A DNA stretch of 41,939 bases from Candidatus Moranbacteria bacterium GW2011_GWF2_35_54 (GTDB lineage: Bacteria > Patescibacteriota > Minisyncoccia > Moranbacterales > UBA9337): positions 1 through 41,939 of the forward strand of contig LBQR01000029.1 in NCBI GenBank assembly GCA_000990945.1, read 5' to 3'. Position 1 is the stretch's first letter. Every line of letters begins with the position of its first letter. Under the pieces are notes generated by a model. That model worked only from the letters and a program-made list of their open reading frames with translations, searched no databases and was not told where the DNA came from. Below are positions 1,194 through 27,948 of this stretch, in pieces. Made by a program: the position numbers and the translations under genes.

Positions 1194-1739
1194 ATGGCAA
1201 AACAAAGTCAACATCATGGTCGCGCTTGGTATGTACTGCACACTTATTCCGGTTATGAAGATAACGTGGCCTACAATTTAAAACAAAGAATTGAATCTAT
1301 GGATATGCAGGATTTGATTTTTGATGTGATTGTCCCCAAGGAAAAAAAGATTAAGATTAAAAGTGGTAAAAGAGTAACGATAGAGGAGAGAATTTATCCC
1401 GGATATGTTTTAGTAGATATGATTGTAACAGACGCTTCTTGGTATGTGGTTAGAAACACACCCAATGTTACAGGATTTATCGGACTAGGCACAACTCCAA
1501 CTCCTATTGATCCAGAGGAGGTTAAGGCTCTTAAAAAGAGAATTGGAGTATCTGAGCCAAAATATAAATTGGATATCAAAGAGGGGGAATCAGTTAAAAT
1601 TACCGATGGACCGTTTAAGGATCATGATGGAAAAGTAAAAGAAATTGATGAAGAAAGAGGAAAAGTAAAAGTTTCAGTTTCAATCTTTGGTCGAGAGACT
1701 CCAGTTGAATTGGACTTTTTACAGATTAAAAAAATATAA
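1194..1739 (+). CDS. nusG: Transcription termination/antitermination factor NusG
   Basis: WYVLHTYSGYE, YPGYVLV, VRNTPNVTGF, KOW domain, IFGRETPVEL. Confidence 0.98.
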   Translation: MAKQSQHHGRAWYVLHTYSGYEDNVAYNLKQRIESMDMQDLIFDVIVPKEKKIKIKSGKRVTIEERIYPGYVLVDMIVTDASWYVVRNTPNVTGFIGLGTTPTPIDPEEVKALKKRIGVSEPKYKLDIKEGESVKITDGPFKDHDGKVKEIDEERGKVKVSVSIFGRETPVELDFLQIKKI

Positions 1740-1744
1740 ATTCA

Positions 1745-1856
1745 TATTAGCAAGTAACATATTAGCATATTAACATAGGCAGAGTCTGAGATTTTATTAA
1801 AATATAGTATTTCTTGGGGTGATGCTTAAATGTTAAAATGTTAAAATGTTAAAATG
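1745..1856. repeat. Inverted pair of octamer arrays
   Basis: ATATTAGC/ATATTAAC units then AATGTTAA x3-4. Confidence 0.7.
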
Positions 1857-1864
1857 ATACAATT

Positions 1865-2284
1865 ATGGCAAAGGCAAAAACAGTTATAAAACTTCAAATA
1901 CCAGCTGGAAAAGCAAATCCAGCTCCACCAGTTGGACCAGCTTTGGGACAACATGGAGTTAACATTCAAGATTTCTGTGCTCAATTTAATAATAAGAGCC
2001 AAGAGAGAATGGGAGATATCGTGCCAGTTGAAATTACAGTTAATGAGGATAGAAGTTTTTCATTTATTATGAAAACTTCACCTGCTTCAGATTTACTAAA
2101 GAAAGCCGCTGGAGTAGAAAAGGGCGCTGGTAATCCTTTGAAAGATAAGGTAGGAAAAGTTACCAAAGCTCAAGTGAAAGAAATTGCTGAGAAAAAAATG
2201 GAAGATCTTAATGCTGATGATGTGGAGGCTGCGATGAAAATTATCGAAGGCACAGCTAGATCAATGGGGATTAAGGTTGAATAA
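1865..2284 (+). CDS. rplK: 50S ribosomal protein L11
   Basis: [25 protein letters not shown]. Confidence 0.99.
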
Positions 2285-2335
2285 TTGAGAAACTGGGAAT
2301 TTAAGAATTTAGGAATGTAGGAATTTGGGAAGTTA
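2284..2335. repeat. Octamer array (GAATTTAG-like)
   Basis: Same unit at 38303-38378 and 39399-39433. Confidence 0.7.
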
Positions 2336-2395
2336 AGATTAAAAATCTGTAGTTTTACGAAATTGGATTTCTGCCAAAAACAAAGAGGTGGCGCC

Positions 2396-2626
2396 ATGAC
2401 AAGAGAAAATATTTTTGAGATATACTTGAAAGTTCTTTCTTTGTTGGCTGTGATTGCGTTATTATCATCGGCTTATTTTATTTTAAAAAATAATAATTTA
2501 GGTTGGCAAATATTTGTTTTAGCAGGAGTTATCACTGTTGTTATCTGCGAGTTAGGACAAGAATATTATGGGAGATTTGGCTATCGCCCATGGAAAGATA
2601 AACCATCGATAACCAGGAGGTTATGA
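2396..2626 (+). CDS. Small hypothetical 2-TM membrane protein
   Basis: GAGGTG SD before ATG 2396; two hydrophobic segments. Confidence 0.65.
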   Translation: MTRENIFEIYLKVLSLLAVIALLSSAYFILKNNNLGWQIFVLAGVITVVICELGQEYYGRFGYRPWKDKPSITRRL

Positions 2627-2629
2627 ATT

Positions 2630-2947
2630 ATGAATAAGATTTTCCGAAGAGTAAGTGTCTGGTTGTATGAAAAAATGGATAAATCTTTCTGTATAGAAAT
2701 TTCTCCAGAAGCGGAAATAATGGAACTTAAATTTGTAAGTCTTCTTATTTTAGGCATTTTGATTATGCTAGGATGCTGGGGATTTCAAGAGGGAAGGTTT
2801 GATTTTTGGGCAAAAATATTTTGCGCAATGGGCGTGGTAGTAGTGGTATTCATTTTCATTTGGAAAAATGTTTATGGGGGAGTTAGTCTTTTTCAGAAAG
2901 AAAAAAATACTCACGAAAGTGAGGAATCGGCATTTGATGAAAATTGA
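2630..2947 (+). CDS. Hypothetical 2-TM membrane protein
   Basis: AGGAGG SD upstream; two hydrophobic segments. Confidence 0.65.
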   Translation: MNKIFRRVSVWLYEKMDKSFCIEISPEAEIMELKFVSLLILGILIMLGCWGFQEGRFDFWAKIFCAMGVVVVVFIFIWKNVYGGVSLFQKEKNTHESEESAFDEN

Positions 2948-3052
2948 ATTGTCCAAGCGTAAAATGTCGGCAGAAGTTGATGAGTGGTTGGAGAATTTTT
3001 TCAATCACTCAAAAATAATAATTTGATTTATTTAAATAATAATAAGTAATTT

Positions 3053-3093
3053 GTGGGAGGAGATTGTACTAAGCACAACTTCATTATTACCAC
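3053..3093 (+). promoter_or_regulatory. Putative L1-binding autoregulatory leader
   Basis: GTGGGAG-hairpin-ACCAC immediately before the rplA ATG, the layout seen in L1 operator mimics. Confidence 0.65.
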
Positions 3094-3101
3094 GAAAAAA
3101 T

Positions 3102-3773
3102 ATGAGAAGAGGAAAAAAGTACAAAGGAGTAATGGAAAAAATAGAGAAGAATAAACTTTATTCTCTAGAAGAAGCGATTAAAATCGTTAAAGAAAATAAA
3201 ATCGCTAATTTTGATGAATCCGTAGAAGTTCATGTAAAAACTAATATTGATCCAAAAAAAGGTGATCAACAGCTTCGCGGTTCAGTTGTTTTCCCACATG
3301 GAACAGGCAAGACCAAGAGGATTGCAGTTATTACTACTACCAAAGCCAAAGAGGCCAAAGAGGCCAAAGCTGATGTGGTAGCGGGAATAGAATTAATTGA
3401 AGACATTAAAAAAGGAAAAATTGATTTTGATATTTTAGTCGCTACTCCAGAAATGATGCCCAAATTAGCTTCAATAGCTAAAATTCTTGGACCAAAGGGA
3501 CTTATGCCTAATCCAAAAACTGATACCGTAACTGACAAAATCAAAGAAGCGGTAGAAATGCTCAAAAAAGGAAAGATGAGCTTTAAAAATGACAATACTG
3601 GAAATGTCCACCAAGTTATCGGCAAAGCATCTTTTAGCGAAGCTCAATTGAAAGAAAATTTTGATTCTCTGATTGAGGCGCTTGAAAAAGCTAAACAAGA
3701 AGCAGTTAAAGGAAAATTGATTGCCAAAGCTGTGCTTTGTTCTACGATGGGACCAGGATTACAAGTAAAATAA
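3102..3773 (+). CDS. rplA: 50S ribosomal protein L1
   Basis: NFDESVEV, RGSVVFPHGTG, LGPKGLMPNPK, STMGPG; start at ATG 3102. Confidence 0.98.
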   Translation: MRRGKKYKGVMEKIEKNKLYSLEEAIKIVKENKIANFDESVEVHVKTNIDPKKGDQQLRGSVVFPHGTGKTKRIAVITTTKAKEAKEAKADVVAGIELIEDIKKGKIDFDILVATPEMMPKLASIAKILGPKGLMPNPKTDTVTDKIKEAVEMLKKGKMSFKNDNTGNVHQVIGKASFSEAQLKENFDSLIEALEKAKQEAVKGKLIAKAVLCSTMGPGLQVK

Positions 3774-3791
3774 TTTTCAAAAACTTTCAAT

Positions 3792-3826
3792 AAAAAAACC
3801 GTCTTGAAATAAAGGGCGGTTTTTTG
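3792..3826 (+). terminator. Intrinsic terminator
   Basis: AAAAAAACCGTC-TT..AA-GGGCGGTTTTTT after rplA. Confidence 0.8.
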
Positions 3827-3848
3827 ATTCGAATTTTTTCTTTGTTTT

Positions 3849-3963
3849 GTCTCTGCGAGTAATTTGAGTACTCTCAAATTGCGTGGCAGTCCAGAAAAAC
3901 AGAATTCTTGATTAAGCATATTTTCCTGGATTGCCACGTCAGGAATACCTTCCTCGCAAAGAC
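3849..3963. repeat. Palindromic element family A (complete)
   Basis: GTCTCTGCGAG...GTGGCAGTCCAG / CTGGATTGCCAC...CTCGCAAAGAC; inverted sister of 21182-21297. Confidence 0.9.
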
Positions 3964-4133
3964 ATGCATACTTTTTCATAGGGGTCAGTGAGGAGTTATG
4001 CAGTGCTCTGTTCCTGCACTTGATTTTTTCTTGCTTTTCGATTACTGTATATGGAAGGCAAAGAGTTATTTTTTTGGATATATTAACAGGCAGAAGTATA
4101 ATTGTCGTTTTAATTTAAGAGGAGGTTATTATT

Positions 4134-4361
4134 ATGGCTGATAATGGAAAATCTTTAAGATTTGAAATTACAATCAAGAGAAACGATGAGGGTGTGCCTG
4201 AAGTTGTTATGTCGGCAGAGGTGATTAGGAGCGATGGATCTCCTGATAAAATAGGTACGGATATTTTCTCGCTTACTGAAAATTTAGAACATGCCCTAAA
4301 GATTCTTAAGGGGAGAGTGGGTCAAAATGCTTGCGAAATGTTTTTGGATGTTATGACCTGA
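4134..4361 (+). CDS. Hypothetical protein (75 aa)
   Basis: AGGAGG SD, followed by a hairpin terminator at about 4386-4428; flanked by two family A elements. Confidence 0.7.
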   Translation: MADNGKSLRFEITIKRNDEGVPEVVMSAEVIRSDGSPDKIGTDIFSLTENLEHALKILKGRVGQNACEMFLDVMT

Positions 4362-4515
4362 TGTAGCACGACAAATCTTTTTCAGAAAAAAATCTCTTAA
4401 GAATATCATTTTCCTAAGAGATTTTTTATTTGTTTGAATTTGCATGTTAGATTTTAATTTGAAACAAAAAAGATAAAGTAACTGGCCAGTTTTCTCCAAA
4501 GACAGAATAGAGTTT

Positions 4516-4615
4516 GTCTTTGCGAGTCGGTACTCCGACGTGGCAATCCAGAATTACACACTTTAAAACCTAGATTGCCACGCAATTTCTGAGTACAGAA
4601 ATTACTCGCAAAGAC
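4516..4615. repeat. Palindromic element family A (complete)
   Basis: GTCTTTGCGAG...GTGGCAATC / GATTGCCACG...CTCGCAAAGAC; GTACTC 4530, GAGTAC 4591. Confidence 0.9.
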
Positions 4616-4712
4616 GATAAAGATGGGTTGGTTTTAGAGAGAGTGAATAATTATAATATAAAATACAATATAAAATATAGAATATTTTATATTTTTGTGT
4701 TATTATTTAAAC

Positions 4713-5144
4713 ATGGAAAATAAAATAGTAATCTACACTGACGGTGGTTCGCGAGGAAATCCTGGACCAGCGGGGATTGGTGTTTGGATAAAGACATTAG
4801 ATAAAAAATACGGAGAATGTATCGGAATAAAAACCAATAATGATGCTGAATACGAAGCATTGATTTTTGGTCTGAAAAAAGTCAAAGCTCTGCTGGGAAA
4901 AACTAAAGCCAAACAATTTGAAATTGAATGCTATGCTGATAGCGAATTAATGGTTAAGCAACTTAATCATGAGTACAAATTAAAAGAAGAAAGAATCCAA
5001 AAATATTTTATTGAAATTTGGAATTTAATGCTGGATTTTAAAGAAGTTAAATTTAATCATGTGATGCGTGAAAAGAATAAGGTGGCGGATGAGATGGTGA
5101 ATGCGGCGTTGGATGGGAAGTGTAAACAGACGAGTCTTTTGTAA
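4713..5144 (+). CDS. rnhA: Ribonuclease HI family protein
   Basis: YTDGGSRGNPGPAG, TNNDAEYEAL, DSELMVKQ, REKN..AD. Confidence 0.92.
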   Translation: MENKIVIYTDGGSRGNPGPAGIGVWIKTLDKKYGECIGIKTNNDAEYEALIFGLKKVKALLGKTKAKQFEIECYADSELMVKQLNHEYKLKEERIQKYFIEIWNLMLDFKEVKFNHVMREKNKVADEMVNAALDGKCKQTSLL

Positions 5145-5146
5145 AA

Positions 5147-5181
5147 ATGAATTATGAATTAAGAATTATGAATTAAGATTT
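5147..5181 (+). repeat. Heptamer array, left arm (A[T/A]GAATT x5)
   Basis: ATGAATT ATGAATT AAGAATT ATGAATT AAGATTT. Confidence 0.9.
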
Positions 5182-5188
5182 GTAAATT

Positions 5189-5578
5189 ATGGAAAACAAA
5201 AAAGAAAAAATAAAATCGTTTACTGATTTAAACGCTTGGAGAGAAGGGCATAAGTTGGTTTTGGAAATTTATAATGTAACAAAACTATTTCCTGAGGATG
5301 AGAGATTCGGTTTAATTTCTCAAATGAGAAGATGCGTAGTTTCTATAACATCAAATATCGCAGAGGGATTTAGTCGCAAAGGCATAAAGGAAAAAATTCA
5401 GTTTTATCACATATCCCTTGGTTCCATAACAGAATTGCAGAATCAATTAGTAATCTGTAGAGATTTAAAAATTTTAGATAATGATAAATTTAAAAAAATA
5501 GCTCAGCAAACTACGCTGGTACAAAAAATTACCAACGGATTGATTAAATCAACAAAATACATGAATTCTGAATCTTAA
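5189..5578 (+). CDS. Four-helix-bundle protein (23S rRNA IVP / Avd-like family)
   Basis: SF.DL.AW, FP..ERFGL.SQ.RR..VSI.SNIAEG, GS..EL..QL. Confidence 0.93.
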   Translation: MENKKEKIKSFTDLNAWREGHKLVLEIYNVTKLFPEDERFGLISQMRRCVVSITSNIAEGFSRKGIKEKIQFYHISLGSITELQNQLVICRDLKILDNDKFKKIAQQTTLVQKITNGLIKSTKYMNSES

Positions 5579-5604
5579 TTCTTAATTCATACTTCTTAAT
5601 TCAC
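5564..5604 (-). repeat. Heptamer array, right arm (reverse complement of 5147-5181)
   Basis: AATTCTT AATTCAT ACTTCTT AATTCAC, beginning inside the last codons of the gene. Confidence 0.88.
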
Positions 5605-5615
5605 ATAAAATAAAT

Positions 5616-6629
5616 ATGAAAAAAAGAAAAAAAATAATCATCTGGATAATTGTACTAGCGATTTTGGGTGCGGGTGCTTTTTACTATTTCAAACCCAAAG
5701 AAACTGGGCCGGAGTACACCACGGAAAAAGTAGCTAAGGCAGATATTGAGCAAACTGTTTCCGTAACTGGAGAAGTGAGTGATACTAGTAAGATAGATAT
5801 TACTCCTGAAATAAGCGGGACGGTTGATGAGTTATTAGTGGAAGTTGGCGATAAAGTAACAGCTGGACAAAAAATTGCCAAAATTAATGATTCCGTAGTA
5901 CGTTCTCAATTAACGGAAGCTTTGATTGCACTCCAAATTCAGCAAGAGCAATTGGATTTAAAGAGGCGAAAATGGGATGCATTAAAGCCAGAGGAAAAGG
6001 AGGCAGCTAAACTAACAGTAGAGAGTGCACGAGCTACTACTTGGACATTACAAAAACAATTAAAGAAAAATATTGTTTATGCGCCTGTGGATGGAATTAT
6101 TACCAAGAAATATTTAGAAGAAGGAGAGATGGCTTCTATGGCAACACCGATTGTGAGTGTGTCAGGAGAAAAAGGTTTTGAAATCAAAGCCAATATCCCA
6201 GAGTCAGATATTAATAAAATTAAAATAGGACAAAAAGGACAATCGACTTTTGATGCTTTTCTTTCAGATGAAATATTTGAATTTGAAGTTACCAAGATAG
6301 AACCAGCTGCAACTATTATTCAGGATGTGGTTTATTATGAAGTGACCTTTAAAATTTTAACTCAAGATAATCGCATCAAGTCAGGGATGAGTACCGATAT
6401 TGATATTTTAACTGCCGAGAAGAAAGATGTTCTGGCAGTTTCCAATCAAGCGATTAAAAATGATGAGGGCAATCGATATGTGGAAGTTTTGGAAGTGAAA
6501 GATGAAGTTAAAACTACTAAAAAGGTAAATGTAAAAGCAGGCTTGCGGGGAGATGACGGAATGACAGAAATTATCTCTGGTTTAAATGGCGGAGAAGATG
6601 TAATAACTTTTACGAAAGAAGCGAAATAA
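5616..6629 (+). CDS. Efflux membrane-fusion/adaptor protein (MacA-like)
   Basis: N-terminal anchor, lipoyl-like ISGTV..L.V.VGD.V..GQ, APVDG.I, GMS. Confidence 0.9.
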   Translation: MKKRKKIIIWIIVLAILGAGAFYYFKPKETGPEYTTEKVAKADIEQTVSVTGEVSDTSKIDITPEISGTVDELLVEVGDKVTAGQKIAKINDSVVRSQLTEALIALQIQQEQLDLKRRKWDALKPEEKEAAKLTVESARATTWTLQKQLKKNIVYAPVDGIITKKYLEEGEMASMATPIVSVSGEKGFEIKANIPESDINKIKIGQKGQSTFDAFLSDEIFEFEVTKIEPAATIIQDVVYYEVTFKILTQDNRIKSGMSTDIDILTAEKKDVLAVSNQAIKNDEGNRYVEVLEVKDEVKTTKKVNVKAGLRGDDGMTEIISGLNGGEDVITFTKEAK

Positions 6630-6632
6630 AAT

Positions 6633-7361
6633 ATGTCAATTCCAATTATCGAAGTAAAAAATCTAACCAAGACTTACATTAATGGTGAAGTGGAGACTTT
6701 GGCGTTGCGTGAAAATTCTTTTAATGTAGAAAAAGGGGAGTTTGTCTCTATTATGGGTCCTAGCGGAAGCGGTAAATCAACCTTGATGCAGATGTTGGGA
6801 CTTCTGGACAAGCCCAGCGGGGGAGAATATTTATTAGAAGGAAAAAATACTAGAGATTTCTCAGATGATATGCTGGCTGAAACTAGAAATAGCAAAATTG
6901 GTTTTGTTTTTCAAACTTTTAATCTTTTGCCTCGCACAAGCGTGTATGAAAATGTAGAGCTGCCTCTTTTATACAATAGAAACATCAGCAGTAAAATTAA
7001 CGAAAAAAGAATTACCGAAGCTTTGAAATCAGTTGGCATGGAACATCGCACAGATTATTTGTCCAATCAGCTCTCTGGAGGAGAAAAACAAAGAGTAGCG
7101 ATAGCACGGGCGCTAGTAACTGATCCGGAAATAATTTTTGCCGATGAACCTACGGGAAATCTGGATTCTAAAAGTGGGACGCAGATAATGCAAATTTTAC
7201 AGAAATTAAATAATGAAGGAAAAACAATTATTCTGGTGACCCATGAAACTTTTACTGCTCAGCATGCCAAAAGGATTTTAAATGTAAAAGACGGCAAGAT
7301 AATTTCCGATGAAATAGTTAAAGAAAGAAAAATAGCAGTGGATGGAGAACTTTTGAAGTAA
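6633..7361 (+). CDS. ABC transporter ATP-binding protein (MacB/LolD-like)
   Basis: [25 protein letters not shown]. Confidence 0.96.
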
Positions 7362-7419
7362 TTTAGAATTTCCAATTTTGAATTTCGAATGAATTTTAAG
7401 AGCATTATTCAATTTTTCT

Positions 7420-7593
7420 GTCATTCCAGAAGATAAATTTTCTAAGCGATTCGCCAGCTGGCGGAGAGCTTTTAGAAAATTATCTATCTGGAATCTCAAA
7501 CATGTATTAATTTGTTGTATATGAATGAGATCCCACATAAGTAAATTTCTAAAGCTCCTTACGTCGCTAAGAAATTTTACTTTCTGGGATGAC
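7420..7593. repeat. Long palindromic element (family B-like, extended arms) inside an inverted AATTT array (7360-7662)
   Basis: GTCATTCCAG...GGAATCTC / GAGATCCC...CTGGGATGAC; inverted sister of 13712-13879. Confidence 0.9.
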
Positions 7594-7670
7594 AATGCAG
7601 GGGTTTTAAAAAATTAAAGCATTGGAATTTGATTCAAAATTTAAAATTATAAATTTAAAATTGCGCAAGC

Positions 7671-8918
7671 ATGAATATATTAATTCCCATAAAAATATCT
7701 TTCAAAAATCTAATGGCGGCTAAATTCCGTTCTTTTTTAACTATCTTGGGAATTATTATCGGAGTGGCTTCGGTAATTATTATTTTTGCTGTGGGACAAA
7801 GCGCTCAAGAATTAATCCTGGATCAAATCAGAGGAGTGGGTTCAAATTTAGTGGGAGTTTTACCGGGAGCTTCGGATGAAAAAGGTCCGCCAGCTTCAGC
7901 TATGGGAATAGTTATCACTACTTTAAAATATGATGATTTTCTGGAGCTTAAAAAACCCAAAAATGTAACCGGAGTAGTGGCGGGGGCAGGCTATGTGATG
8001 GGGACGGCTACGATAGAAAATGATGGAACTGAGTTAGGCATGTCTTTTACCGGAACTACATCGCAGTACCCCGAGGTAGAAAGTACGGGTATGAAAAGCG
8101 GAAGATTTTTCATTGAAGAAGAAGAAACTAATTTATCCAGAGTGGCCGTTTTGGGAGTAACGGCAGCCAAAGATATTTTTGGAGATACTGATCCGATTGG
8201 AAGGAAGATAAAAATCAATGAGTATAAATTTACTGTAATTGGAGTTTTAAAAGAAAGAGCTTCGGCCGCTTTTGGAATCGCGAGTCAAGATGAAGCTGTT
8301 TTTGTTCCACTTTTTACCGCTCAGAAATTACTTTTGGGGATTAACCATCTGGCTTTCGCAAGATTAAAAATAGATACTATAGAAAATATTCCTATAGCCA
8401 AGGAAGATATGGCCACTGTTCTTAGAAATGAGCATGACATAGATGATCCGGATGATGATGACTTTTCAATTAGGGACCAAGCTTCAGCGGTGGAGATTGT
8501 GAGCACAATTACCAATGCGATGCGTTATTTTCTTTTGGCAGTAGGAACAATCTCTCTGATTGTGGGAGGGGTGGGCGTGATGAATGTGATGCTAATTGCA
8601 GTAAATCAAAGAATAAAAGAAGTGGGTCTGCGAAAAGCGGTGGGAGCTAAGAATATCGATGTGATGATTCAATTTCTACTCGAATCAGCGACAATTTCCT
8701 TTCTTGGGGGATTGATCGGTATAATTTTTGGAATAGCTGTTTCTTTTGGGGCATCTTTGGCGGTAAATGCAATGGGTTATGATTGGAAATTTATTATTTC
8801 GCCAAGCTCAATTGCAATTGCTGTGTCGGTTTCTATATTGATTGGAATAATTTTTGGACTCTATCCCGCCCGCAAAGCCTCGAAGATAAGTCCGATGGAA
8901 GCGCTTAGGTATGAATAA
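7671..8918 (+). CDS. ABC transporter permease (MacB/FtsX-like)
   Basis: RSFLTILGIIIG, GGVGVMNVM, EVGLRKAVGA, YPARKA...EALRYE. Confidence 0.95.
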   Translation: MNILIPIKISFKNLMAAKFRSFLTILGIIIGVASVIIIFAVGQSAQELILDQIRGVGSNLVGVLPGASDEKGPPASAMGIVITTLKYDDFLELKKPKNVTGVVAGAGYVMGTATIENDGTELGMSFTGTTSQYPEVESTGMKSGRFFIEEEETNLSRVAVLGVTAAKDIFGDTDPIGRKIKINEYKFTVIGVLKERASAAFGIASQDEAVFVPLFTAQKLLLGINHLAFARLKIDTIENIPIAKEDMATVLRNEHDIDDPDDDDFSIRDQASAVEIVSTITNAMRYFLLAVGTISLIVGGVGVMNVMLIAVNQRIKEVGLRKAVGAKNIDVMIQFLLESATISFLGGLIGIIFGIAVSFGASLAVNAMGYDWKFIISPSSIAIAVSVSILIGIIFGLYPARKASKISPMEALRYE

Positions 8919-8924
8919 TTATGT

Positions 8925-8962
8925 AGTTTATAAAGTTTGTAAGGTTATAAAGTTTATAAAGT
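8925..8962. repeat. Nonamer array (GTTTATAAA-like)
   Basis: Period 9; same unit at 15646-15680. Confidence 0.7.
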
Positions 8963-8968
8963 GGGGAA

Positions 8969-9064
8969 ATGAATTAAGAATTATGAATTAAGAATTAAGA
9001 GTGAAAATTATACTTAAAAATATGAGTTTTTATCATAATTCATGATACTTACTTCTTAATTCGA
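8969..9064. repeat. Empty inverted heptamer-array element
   Basis: Same left (ATGAATT/AAGAATT) and right (AATTCAT..ACTTCTTAATTC) arms as around 5189-5578, with only about 30 bp between them. Confidence 0.85.
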
Positions 9065-9074
9065 GTTATATTTT

Positions 9075-10352
9075 ATGAGTAAATTTATAATTTCAATCAA
9101 ACTCGCTTTGCGAAATTTGTATAGCAGTAAAGTGCGAACCGCTTTATCGCTTTTGGGCATTGTAATCGGAGTAACTTCGGTGATTTTGATTTTAGCTTTG
9201 GGAAATGGCTTGAGAAATTTTATTACTGATCAAGTGGAAAGTTTCGGAACTGATATCGTGCAGATAGAAGTTAAAGTTCCCAAAACTTCCCATGTTTCTT
9301 CAGAAAATGTAGGGGCTATGGCGGGAGGAACTCAAATTACTACGCTGAAGATGGAGGATGTGGAGGAGGTGGCTAAATTGTCTAATCTGGGTAATTGGTA
9401 TGCTGGAATTTTGGGCCAGCAAATCGTCAGTCGAGAGGATGAAAATGAACAAACTTATATTTTTGGAGTAACCAGCGGAATGATGGAGGCGGATAGTGGA
9501 GCAGAATTGGAAAAAGGAACATTTTTTACCCAGGAGGATGATCGTGATCTAAAGCAGATGGCGATTTTGGGGAGTAAGACTAAAGAATTATTTTTTCCCA
9601 ATGAAGAGGCGGTAGGACAAAGTATTAAAATTGGAAAAAATAAATATAAAGTTATTGGCGTAATGAAAGAACGCAGTTCAAGCGGAGGATTTGATTTTAA
9701 TAAAATTGTCTATATTCCAGTTAAAACTCTACAGAAAAAGATAATGGGAATTGAGCATGTTCAATTTGCTATCTTTAAAATAAAAAATATGGAGATTGTT
9801 GATCAGACCATGGAAGAAATGCGTTCTATCATGCGGGATGAACATGATATAGAATATGATAATGAAAAAGATAAAAAAGAAGGCATAGATGATGATTTTG
9901 CGATAATGTCTATAGCTGAAGCTAAGGAAATCTTGGATAAAGTTTTTAATATTATCGATGCCTTGCTTTTGGCTTTGGTTTCTGTTTCTTTGATAGTGGG
10001 AGGAGTGGGAATAATGAACGTGATGTATGTGGCAGTTACAGAACGAACTCAAGAAATTGGGCTCAGAAAAGCCGTGGGGGCCAGAAATAGAGATGTTCTT
10101 TGGCAATTTATTTTTGAAGCAATATTTTTAACATTGCTAGGCGGAATTGTGGGGATAATTATGGGAGTATTATTTTCTGAACTAGCTACTTATATGATTA
10201 ATCAATATGGTTATAATATTATTTTTGGAGTAACTGGCAGATCAGTGCTGATAGCGGTTGGATTTTCTATGATCACAGGGGTTGTCTTCGGGTTTTATCC
10301 CGCCCGCAAAGCCTCCTTTATGACTCCTGCGGAAGCACTAAGAAAAGAATAG
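9075..10352 (+). CDS. ABC transporter permease (MacB/FtsX-like), paralog
   Basis: RTALSLLGIVIG, GGVGIMNVM, EIGLRKAVGA. Confidence 0.95.
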   Translation: MSKFIISIKLALRNLYSSKVRTALSLLGIVIGVTSVILILALGNGLRNFITDQVESFGTDIVQIEVKVPKTSHVSSENVGAMAGGTQITTLKMEDVEEVAKLSNLGNWYAGILGQQIVSREDENEQTYIFGVTSGMMEADSGAELEKGTFFTQEDDRDLKQMAILGSKTKELFFPNEEAVGQSIKIGKNKYKVIGVMKERSSSGGFDFNKIVYIPVKTLQKKIMGIEHVQFAIFKIKNMEIVDQTMEEMRSIMRDEHDIEYDNEKDKKEGIDDDFAIMSIAEAKEILDKVFNIIDALLLALVSVSLIVGGVGIMNVMYVAVTERTQEIGLRKAVGARNRDVLWQFIFEAIFLTLLGGIVGIIMGVLFSELATYMINQYGYNIIFGVTGRSVLIAVGFSMITGVVFGFYPARKASFMTPAEALRKE

Positions 10353-16585: not shown

Positions 16586-16639
16586 GGATTTCTCCGCTTC
16601 TAAATTTATGAGTACATAAATTTATTCGGTCGAAATGAC
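16586..16639. repeat. Palindromic element family B, right arm
   Basis: Near-exact reverse complement of the left arm 17885-17938. Confidence 0.85.
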
Positions 16640-16704
16640 ATACGTGGGATGTCAGCACTATTTTTGGTATTTAATTCATAATTCATAATACTTAATTCAT
16701 TCTC

Positions 16705-17831
16705 ATGTTTGTAATTAAACAAATGGAATTACGCGCAGCTAAATATCCAGATGTGATTTCATTGGCTCAAGGGGTACCAAATTTTGATACTCCTGAGTGT
16801 ATTAAACGCAGAGTGGAATTGGCTTTAAAAAGAGGGATTGTCGCCAAATATTCGCTTTCTCCTGGAATTTCTGAATTGCGAGAATTAATCGAATTAAAAT
16901 TAGCCCAAGAGAATATGTTTTATGATTGGGAAAAAGAAATTCTGATTACCGCTGGGTCGATTGAAGGAATCACGGCGACAATTTTAGCGCTTACAAATCC
17001 AGGAGACGAAATTATTATCCCTCAGCCAACCTATACTTCTTATCGGGAAGTAATAACTTTGGCTGGTTGCACTCCGGTTTTTGTAGCGCTGGACGAAGGA
17101 AAAGGCTGGGCTTTTGATCTGGAAAAATTTAGGCAAGCGATTACACCCAAGACCAAAGCGATTTTTTATTGTAATCCTAATAATCCCACAGGGACCATTT
17201 ATAGTAAGGAACAATTATTAGGATTAGCCAAGCTGGCCCAGGAACATGATTTGTTTTTAATTTCGGATGAAGTGTATAAAGATTTTCTTTTTGAGGAAAA
17301 CCAAAAAATTTTTAGTTTAGCGGAAATTCCTTTTCCAAATCTTATGCCATGACCGGTTGGCGAGTGGGTTATCTCCATAGCGATGAAAGTATTATCAGAG
17401 AAATTCTTAAAGTTCATGATTCTTTGGTAACTTGCGCGCCGGTTATTTCTCAGTACGCTGCCATGGGAGCTTTGGAGATGGGGGATAAGGATTTAATTGA
17501 AATGAATCAAGAATATAAAAAGAGAAGAGATTTAATTTGCAATCATCTGGACGATATGGCTCATATTTTTTCGTATGTCCGGCCGGAGAGCGCGTATTTT
17601 GTTTTTCCAAAAATATTGCTAGATAATATTGACTATATAGATAATGATCATAGTGGAAGTTTATCTTGGAAGTTCGCCTTAAATTTATTGGAAAAAACCA
17701 AAGTAGCCGTAGTTCCTGGCGTAGCCTTTGGCCCTAACGGCGAAGGACATATTCGAATGAGCTTTGGACGAAGTGAAGAGGATATAAATAAGGCATTTGG
17801 AAGAATGAAGAGATTCTTCAAGGCGTTGTAG
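16705..17831 (+). CDS. PLP-dependent aminotransferase class I/II, frame-broken at 17330/17331
   Basis: NPNNPTG, DEVY in frame 1; FSKSYAMTGWRVG and R.SF in frame 2. Confidence 0.88.
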
Positions 17832-17884: not shown

Positions 17885-18009
17885 GTCATTTCGACCGAAT
17901 AAATTTATGTACTCATAAATTTAGGAGTGGAGAAATCTAAGTATTCTATAAATTGAGATTCCTCCATTTCCAAATCTTTGGGTACAAAGTTTTGTTCAGT
18001 CGGAATGAC
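17885..18009. repeat. Palindromic element family B (complete)
   Basis: GTCATTTCGAC...GGAGAAATCT / AGATTCCTCC...GTCGGAATGAC; inverted relative of 27751-27876. Confidence 0.9.
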
Positions 18010-18086
18010 AGATAGAAAATGATTGTTTCAATGCTAAAATGTTAACGTGCTAATCCGCCAGCTGGCGGAGTTAAAATGGACGCCTT

Positions 18087-27679: not shown

Positions 27680-27876
27680 ATCTCTCGATTCCGCTATCGC
27701 TACACTCGAGATGACACCCCTCATGTGAGTTACGTCCAGCTAACGAAGGTGTCATTCCGACCGGACAAATCTTTGTACTCAAAGATTTGGAAGTGGAGGA
27801 ATCTCAATCTATCAGTTAGTTTAGATTTCTCCATTACTAAATTTCCGAGTACAGAAATTTATTCAGTCGAAATGAC
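27678..27876. repeat. Family B half element (27678-27715) plus complete element (27751-27876)
   Basis: AGATCTCTCGA...CTCGAGATGAC; GTCATTCCGAC...GTCGAAATGAC with GTACTC 27775 and GAGTAC 27847. Confidence 0.88.
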
Positions 27877-27948
27877 ATAACGTGGATTTTGGGATAAAAT
27901 GAAGAAAAGCGTTGTTAATGCTTAACATTAAAAATTAATTAAAAAATT

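Follow-up and report, generated by a model that had tools for sequence, protein, structure and literature searches.

A probable intervening-sequence-type cassette with inverted heptamer arms and a 23S rRNA IVP-family gene in an mRNA operon of Candidatus Moranbacteria

The intervening sequences (IVSs) of bacterial 23S rRNA genes are the described systems closest to the element considered here. In Coxiella, the IVS is described as a selfish element of 428 nt with an S23p open reading frame (ORF) in its loop; the inverted repeats at its termini make a 28-bp stem, which RNase III cuts in the middle in vitro, and three tandem heptamers (GACAGAT), whose number varies by strain, stand directly before the ORF (PMC4990558). 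The same account presents the origin, the mobility and the purpose of the rRNA IVS and of the S23p ORF as open since their first description (PMC4990558). The corresponding domain, 23S_rRNA_IVP (IVP, intervening-sequence protein), is called functionally uncharacterised in a 2024 survey, which reports ORFs of this type within 16S and 23S insertions of bacteria of the Candidate Phyla Radiation (PMC11270868), and 18 IVP-type genes have been located between cas genes (PMC3936711). Here, we analyse a stretch of 41,939 bp, the window, which is the whole of contig C29 of the genome of Candidatus Moranbacteria bacterium GW2011_GWF2_35_54 (G000; 1.22 Mb, 76 contigs, 35% G+C), and we argue that positions 5147-5603, lying between two protein-coding genes, are probably an IVS-type selfish cassette in an mRNA operon, including a stem that RNase III would cut in the RNA.

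The cassette is made of two arms and a gene (coordinates are those of the window, and features lie on its + strand unless stated otherwise). The left (5') arm, recognised at 5147-5181 by sequence, alignment and predicted fold, consists of five tandem AWGAATT heptamers in the order ATGAATT, ATGAATT, AAGAATT, ATGAATT and AAGATTT, with one mismatch in the fifth unit, and its pairing potential reaches 5191. The cargo gene at 5189-5578 encodes a protein of 129 amino acids belonging to the four-helix-bundle 23S rRNA IVP/S23p family (PF05635, TIGR02436). The right (3') arm at 5560-5603, identified by alignment and fold, is the reverse complement of the left one, carries the irregular ACTTCTTAATTC and starts within the last six codons of the cargo ORF, the stop codon of which, TAA, occupies 5576-5578. 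Complementarity between the arms amounts to 80% over 44 nt, 93% over 27 nt and 94% over 18 nt, and the order of the A/T variants is mirrored from one to the other, so that the arms are genuine inverted copies of each other, as opposed to arrays that arose independently. In the predicted RNA fold of 5140-5615 the centroid structure is closed by a 23-bp stem with one bulge, and the minimum free energy of -91 kcal/mol, compared with -74.5 +/- 5.5 kcal/mol in shuffled sequences, was equalled by none of 100 shuffles. Terminal inverted repeats with a long predicted stem around an ORF, one of the features by which an IVS is recognised, are therefore found here. The + strand promoter-like matches closest to the cassette are at 4635 and 5864, none being its own, and no terminator-like site was detected in the arms.

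The same arms are found again downstream in the operon at 8969-9062, where no gene stands between them. By alignment, the left arm of this gene-less ("empty") copy is at 8969-8999 and the right arm at 9033-9062, with ACTTCTTAATTC at 9051-9062; the distance between the arms is 2-48 nt according to the pairing chosen, no ORF of at least 60 amino acids is present, and the predicted fold has an energy of -20.8 kcal/mol compared with -14.5 +/- 2.7 kcal/mol in shuffles. Aligned to the full cassette, the copy retains both arms and the leader as far as the start codon, and its middle resembles the last 25 nt of the ORF, this part of the alignment being weak. Such an arrangement fits an internal-deletion derivative of the full cassette. 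In the window, ACTTCTTAATTC occurs exactly twice, at 5591 and 9051, in the right arms of the full and of the empty copy, compared with an expectation of 0.01, and the 14-mer ATGAATTAAGAATT, corresponding to two heptamers, is found 17 times with at most two mismatches compared with 2.9 expected, a number reached in none of 100 shuffles. A repeat search places a solo arm of the same heptamer family on the - strand at 16673-16700, directly before the start of the gene 16705-17352 and after a palindrome resembling miniature inverted-repeat transposable elements (MITE-like), and a related AAGATTT-type heptamer array at 661-695, after the stop of the UDG gene. Much of this had been noticed in an earlier, sequence-only reading of the same DNA: the coordinates and the pairings of a gene bracketed by five heptamers and by their reverse complement from the last codons are confirmed, as are the second pair of arms with its irregular unit and no gene, the solo arm, and the related array. 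Its proposal that these are full and empty forms of one cassette lineage is borne out by the alignment and by the restriction of ACTTCTTAATTC to the two right arms, and on this comparison we regard 8969-9062 as a derivative of that lineage which has no gene and occupies a different junction of the operon.

The comparison of the same junctions in congeners provides a natural series of states. Between the RNase H-like gene and the HlyD-like gene, the IVP cassette is present in G000, in G002 (97% amino acid identity) and in G004 (78%), and the five heptamers of G000 differ in number and order in the other two; in G006 the left arm survives with the ORF's first 34 nt, after which a deletion follows; G008 has arm-like repeats only, with no gene; G007 has a GxxExxY gene with arms of its own; and G005 has neither gene nor arms. 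G003, having no RNase H match upstream of HlyD, falls outside this comparison. At the next junction, between the HlyD-like gene and the ATP-binding cassette (ABC) gene, the spacer is of 3 nt in G000 and of 10 nt in a more distant relative, and a second IVP cassette (49-60% identity, AGGAAT-type arms) is present in G001, G002, G004 and G008, the G008 copy containing two in-frame stops; at the same place there is a gene-less hairpin in G006 and a right arm with MITE-like inserts in G005. The junction between the two permease genes FtsX1 and FtsX2, which houses the empty copy in G000, carries a third IVP type in G001 and G002, a fourth in G004, G005 and G007, and in G003 the same empty hairpin, whose loop contains a MITE-like element; the fourth type and its arms resemble a cassette located elsewhere in G000 (C47:4076-4462). 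No target-site duplication was seen by eye at occupied compared with empty junctions, the spacers being short and of low complexity. Judged by this comparison, congeners differ at the same junctions in having the sense-oriented cassette, a decayed form of it, none or a replacement; the presence and absence that the sequence-only reading expected in relatives at its rnhA-adaptor locus are what is observed, with gain, loss and replacement.

The cargo is a well-defined member of its family. It matches PF05635 with 119.4 bits (cut-off 33.8; E 1e-34; residues 13-116 of 129), TIGR02436, the four helix bundle protein model, with 114.5 bits (cut-off 24), and the solved family member XCC0516 (PDB 2gsc_A) with E 8.5e-20 over residues 1-113. 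The conserved motif of the family has been given as GxxRxxxSxxxNxxE (PMC3936711), and it is present in the window protein as Q45, R48, S52, N56 and E59, with Q replacing G; among 14 diverse members Q45, S52, N56 and E59 are invariant and R48 is nearly so. The dN/dS of the cargo orthologues in G000, G002 and G004 ranges from 0.024 to 0.08, with dS up to 1.6, and this purifying selection indicates that the protein has been kept functional over a long time. The relation of the family to Avd, the accessory protein of diversity-generating retroelements (DGRs), that the sequence-only reading had stated holds as a weak profile similarity and does not extend to a significant match, both Avd profiles scoring below their cut-offs (PF22296, 28.4 bits, cut-off 40; NF033474, 22.4 bits, cut-off 80).

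The association of inverted arms with this gene family was evaluated within the host genome and beyond it. In G000 there are eight PF05635 matches, most of them, by eye, inside inverted tandem repeats, each with a different short unit. For a quantitative ranking, 1082 of 1133 crude ORF-gene calls were scored by local alignment of the 110 nt before the start with the reverse complement of the 110 nt around the stop; this composition-neutral score replaced duplex energies, which favoured G+C-rich hairpins like those of repetitive extragenic palindromic (REP) sequences and under-ranked AT-rich arms. The eight IVP genes rank 4, 5, 16, 17, 21, 200, 275 and 521 of 1082 (Mann-Whitney p 1e-4), and all three PF13366 genes (GxxExxY, TIGR04256) rank 7, 10 and 11. 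Forty-one related genomes yielded 149 PF05635 matches, distributed in 31 genomes and with in-frame stops in 15 cases. Among 81 loci chosen from them, 77 could be scored (three had no start and one was at a contig end), and their median flank score was 31, compared with a genome background of 17; 49 of the 77 reached the 95th percentile of the background, and 24 the 99th. GxxExxY genes of the relatives show the same flank design in 16 of the 23 scored (27 listed, three without a start and one at an edge).

The same holds in other phyla. A scan of species genomes with a five-sequence alignment gave 79 IVP loci from Patescibacteria, Bacteroidota, Planctomycetota, Chloroflexota, Nitrospirota, Verrucomicrobiota and others, of which 76 were taken on (two matches were truncated and one duplicated a relative, and these were left out) and 70 were scorable. 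The threshold was reached by 45 of these 70 loci and by none of their 70 shifted controls, each control being the mean of up to four windows and hence smoother than a single value. Here too the arms are made of private units, for example GGGAGTAA / CTTACTCC or GTTACGA / CTCGTAA, and the design extends to loci whose G+C content reaches 60%. A sample of 20 loci gave no Rfam match, which indicates that these loci are not in rRNA. Inverted arrays are thus strongly associated with the four-helix-bundle family, as the scoring of all its flanks proposed in the sequence-only reading was meant to reveal. The association holds in one direction, from gene to arrays and not the reverse: almost all genes of the IVP or GxxExxY kind have them. 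In a genome of 35% G+C with repeat-rich spacers, chance similarity in AT-rich, low-complexity DNA is one objection to be considered; the shuffle controls, the genome-wide rank test, the shifted windows and the persistence of the design up to 60% G+C refute it, and its probability is practically nil.

Some other genes of G000 also score high for inverted flanks. They encode a YgjP-like peptidase, a DUF6930 protein, a PaaX/Cas2-like domain and a HIT/GalT-like product (C8:6426-7031, C26:11167-11598, C55:8458-9039 and C7:17550-18644), and the flanks of some of them are plain palindromes and not arrays. Three PF13366 matches in the relatives lie inside open frames of 1208, 857 and 661 amino acids (G018:C29:9235-9576, G040:C25:4274-4612 and G035:C5:5808-6149; loci L211, L212 and L234) and may be in-frame insertions or fusions.

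If gene and arms travel together, the relatedness of the former should be reflected in the latter. The fraction of pairs sharing arm 6-mers is 0.14-0.22 when the proteins are less than 50% identical, 0.60 at 60-70% and 0.91-0.92 above 70%, and the correlation of arm similarity with protein similarity (Mantel r 0.28) was reached in none of 999 permutations. Among 163 pairs with proteins at least 60% identical and adequate flanks, 139 have no homologous flanking gene, and 83 of these 139 nevertheless share arm 6-mers; related proteins with related arms in unrelated flanks indicate that gene and arms move as a unit. Furthermore, the arms of one cassette pair better with each other than with the arms of relatives having similar repeats (31 compared with 24; Wilcoxon p 1.5e-10, n = 115). 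On this comparative evidence, the gene and its arms form one heritable, movable unit. One of these pairs joins distant loci: the IVP proteins of L165 (Nitrospirae) and L194 (Pirellulales) are 68% identical and have common arm repeats within unrelated flanks, which suggests a transfer of the whole unit between phyla.

These data bear on the possibility that the hairpins are regulatory elements of the host operon, REP-like in kind, stabilising upstream mRNA or adjusting expression ratios, with the small gene as a passenger in the loop. Gene-less hairpins do stand at several junctions of the operon (7362-7670 and 8969-9062) and in many other spacers, and MITE-like elements do enter the loops of hairpins, G003 providing an example in its copy of the 8969-type hairpin. 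Nonetheless, the arms follow the protein lineage to unrelated loci and phyla, the tight HlyD/ABC junctions of G000 and of the distant relative, which have no cassette, argue that hairpins are not ancestral host features, and the empty copy retains the 5' leader and something like the ORF end of the full cassette, so we consider such a regulatory origin very improbable.

Tandem heptamer arrays are not special to the cargo gene and are widespread in the intergenic DNA of G000. Arrays of period 7 (n = 104) and period 8 (n = 105) exceed by about 20-fold the 5.4 and 5.6 obtained in dinucleotide shuffles and occur in 196 of 924 spacers, periods 6 and 9 being barely enriched. Heterocystous cyanobacteria likewise have intergenic short tandemly repeated heptamers resembling those of the G000 spacers. 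The avoided periods are multiples of three, for which a possible reason is that, in units of 7 or 8 nt, a stop codon falls in all three frames. A long hairpin is present in 95 of 684 gene-less G000 spacers and in none after shuffling; with about 11 gene-bearing cassettes set against many gene-less hairpins, solo arms and MITE-like palindromes, the cassettes are a small minority.

A different explanation assigns the arrays to the protein: the pentameric IVP would itself bind the heptamers, whether in autoregulation, as an RNA chaperone or to mark the element, and the stem would be a secondary feature; such a reading is compatible with an IVS-type cassette. Heptamers remain related between unrelated loci when their proteins are related (at least 60% identical), a conserved period of 7 calls for a reader of that period, and the family is related to Avd, through weak matches, and to XCC0516, described as a homopentameric toroid (PMC4990558). 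The sequence-only reading had likewise suggested that the protein may bind the repeats. This suggestion is weakened by the unrelated GxxExxY genes, which are of the nuclease-fold type, housed in the same kind of arms, both in the relatives and in all three G000 cases, by the number of gene-less hairpins and solo arms, which far exceeds the eight IVP genes, and by the loss of arm similarity below about 50% protein identity, just as plain co-descent predicts. Binding by the IVP as the reason for the arrays is, in our opinion, distinctly improbable.

The cassettes obey a common grammar. Median values are 33 nt for arm length, 8 nt for the gap between the upstream arm and the ATG and 2.5 nt for that between the stop and the downstream arm; the period of the arms is mostly 7, then 8 and 14, with 7 dominant in 147 cassettes. 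In the 94 cassettes of relatives and other phyla considered for composition, the upstream arm has more G than C in 73 and more C than G in 15, the downstream arm being C-rich, and in the loci of other phyla this polarity is of 44 to 1. Both neighbours run in the same direction as the cassette in 31 of 36 cases among the relatives and in 53 of 65 in other phyla, and only one cassette of 101 is antisense to both, compared with a genome baseline, from crude ORF calls, of 65% co-oriented and 8.8% antisense. Some upstream arms (for example those of L155 and L156) read as repeated Shine-Dalgarno sequences.

Taken as an IVS-type cassette, the element at 5147-5603 would work as follows. Transcription of the host operon would run through it; in the RNA, the arms would pair into a stem of about 23-27 bp looping out the gene; RNase III, a gene for which is found in G000, would cut this stem as in the 23S rRNA homologues, parting the cassette RNA from the host mRNA, and such a cut would allow the insertion to be tolerated between host genes. 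The tandem nature of the arms would offer several pairing registers and would permit changes of length by slippage without loss of the stem. Several observations weigh against this proposal. The cassette is not in rRNA, so that the analogy with the IVS is one of architecture and cargo only. At mismatched arm positions in the 94 cassettes, G:U (80) is not in excess over A:C (117), so that a long-term selection on a sense RNA stem is not visible, and we infer RNA pairing only from the rRNA homologues and from predicted folding; copying between arms at the DNA level would fit this result equally. In 11 of 77 cassettes of the relatives the flank similarity is direct and not inverted in the windows used, an inverted partner being located further out in two of three inspected. 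A paired stem would mask the ribosome-binding region in front of a clearly functional gene, and neither the G/C polarity nor the period of 7-8, to the near exclusion of 6 and 9, is explained by a stem for RNase III.

The absence of a G:U excess is also what would be expected if the element were a non-autonomous transposon, a cargo-carrying MITE, and the arms its terminal inverted repeats acting at the DNA level, with movement by an enzyme acting in trans or insertion into DNA hairpins or cruciforms, and with the RNA stem as a by-product. Presence, absence and replacement at the same junctions, a gene-less derivative that retains its ends in the fashion of MITEs, a genome rich in MITE-like palindromes and gene-less hairpins, and the occurrence of Y1 transposase genes with flanking hairpins of their own can all be cited for it. 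However, with arm sequences private to each lineage, it is unlikely that a sequence-specific enzyme acts in trans; no target-site duplication was seen in the short, low-complexity spacers and the unit has no transposase; the sense orientation is nearly universal; and the G-rich 5' and C-rich 3' polarity ties the arms to the direction of the gene. We regard this alternative as unlikely and continue to prefer the IVS-type cassette of an mRNA operon. A bolder extension of the IVS-type reading, which we consider quite unlikely in its full form, would make these elements a pan-bacterial class of mobile cassettes without recombinase, defined by private inverted heptamer arrays around a small S23p/IVP or GxxExxY cargo, spread via an RNA or hairpin intermediate, with the IVP pentamer reading the 7-nt period as a chaperone. 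According to this idea, the stem-loop RNA would be excised, re-inserted into the hairpins of other transcripts and copied back to DNA; if true, such a route would explain the near-universal sense orientation, the choice of rRNA helices and operon spacers as targets and the lack of a transposase.

The host operon is well recognisable. The RNase H-like gene at 4695-5144 (Pfam RNase_H and RVT_3, the latter match being its RNase H domain) is a host gene and not a part of the cassette, and its stop lies 2 nt 5' of the left arm. Downstream, profile matches identify the gene of an HlyD-like membrane-fusion protein at 5616-6629, an ABC ATPase gene at 6633-7361 and two MacB/FtsX permease genes, FtsX1 at 7671-8918 and FtsX2 at 9075-10352. 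The order of the RNase H-like, HlyD-like and ABC genes is conserved throughout the order (30 loci examined). No rRNA match was found in 4600-9400, where the sole Rfam match was to a miRNA model at chance level (E 0.98), and no 23S rRNA gene is contained in the G000 assembly. A profile scan of the neighbouring ORFs revealed no transposase or recombinase in or beside the cassette unit, and no reverse transcriptase was present among 11 ORFs scanned in the first 17 kb.

Other repeats of the window and of the genome were recorded. The gene-less spacer of 309 nt between the ABC gene and FtsX1, at 7362-7670 (hairpin score 50), has inverted arrays of another short repeat at both ends and two MITE-like palindromes within, and in contigs of other groundwater metagenomes its positions 7399-7632 are swapped for 200 other letters. 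A candidate gene-less form of the 5147-5603 arms, seen in contigs of four other groundwater runs joining about 5176 to about 5575 with 21-24 other letters, was given no weight (short-repeat sides, likeness 85). Just before the empty hairpin, at 8919-8962, the sequence contains a TTTATAAAGT-type array, a repeat that also forms the arms of an IVP cassette on G000 C3:62201-62551 (L001); one spacer can hold adjoining arrays of different cassette lineages. MITE-like palindromes form a family with common end sequences (16590-16650, 17885-18010 and 27680-27880 in the window; also L022, L025, L028 and L058), copies of which, in G000 and in its congeners, are often located inside the loops of array hairpins, and an AWGAATT-type array followed by MITE-like sequence at G000 C1:2463-2560 lies inside an open frame of 1138 amino acids (1704-5120) and not in a spacer. 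Y1 transposase genes, IS200/RAYT-like by sequence motifs, are found at G000 C47:7927-8559 and C24:20249-20755, flanked by G+C-rich palindromic hairpins that constitute a repeat system different from the arrays.

A full-text search, which did not reach subscription journals, found no paper that reports IVS-type elements in operons, or flanking arrays other than those of the Coxiella IVS. New are the setting in an mRNA operon, the breadth of the design over phyla and over two cargo families, and the natural series of occupied and empty sites. A wider class of cassettes, present between protein genes as well, appears to include the rRNA IVS as one of its niches; its members have in common inverted arrays with a period of 7-8, arms rich in G on the 5' side and in C on the 3' side, a sense orientation and a loop filled by an ORF. 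Occupied, decayed, empty and replaced states at single junctions within one genus offer material for the study of the insertion mechanism, and the IVP genes reported in cas operons (PMC3936711) may be such insertions and not functional partners.

In comparison with known systems, the window protein resembles the DGR accessory protein Avd, being a small basic four-helix bundle with weak profile similarity to it; unlike Avd, it scores below threshold and has RNase H-like and HlyD-like neighbours and not a reverse transcriptase. On both grounds, profiles and neighbourhood, identification as a DGR Avd was rejected. With MITEs and REPINs the cassettes share inverted ends, an intergenic location, gene-less derivatives and many copies per genome; they differ in that their ends are tandem arrays of a private 7-8-mer and not a terminal sequence common to the whole family. 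A REP/RAYT system (RAYT, REP-associated tyrosine transposase) was rejected as well, since the arms differ between cassettes and the Y1 genes have their own hairpins of other sequence. The closest parallel is with the 23S rRNA IVS with an S23p/IVP ORF, as described for Coxiella and Leptospira: the PF05635 cargo, the ORF filling the loop of a terminal-repeat stem, the tandem heptamers beside and before the ORF (PMC4990558), their variable number, the lack of a recombinase and the existence of ORF-less relatives are all found in the window cassette, and the likeness that the sequence-only reading drew stands as an equality of architecture. The rRNA IVSs lie in helix 25 or 45, whereas the window cassette lies between RNase H-like and HlyD-like genes of an operon; the Coxiella ORF has been described as decaying, whereas the window protein is under strong purifying selection; and the RNase III cleavage described in vitro for the Coxiella IVS would, by analogy, also act on the window cassette. 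The 23S rRNA IVS is regarded as selfish and horizontally moved, and it is in this respect too that the window cassette may be likened to it.

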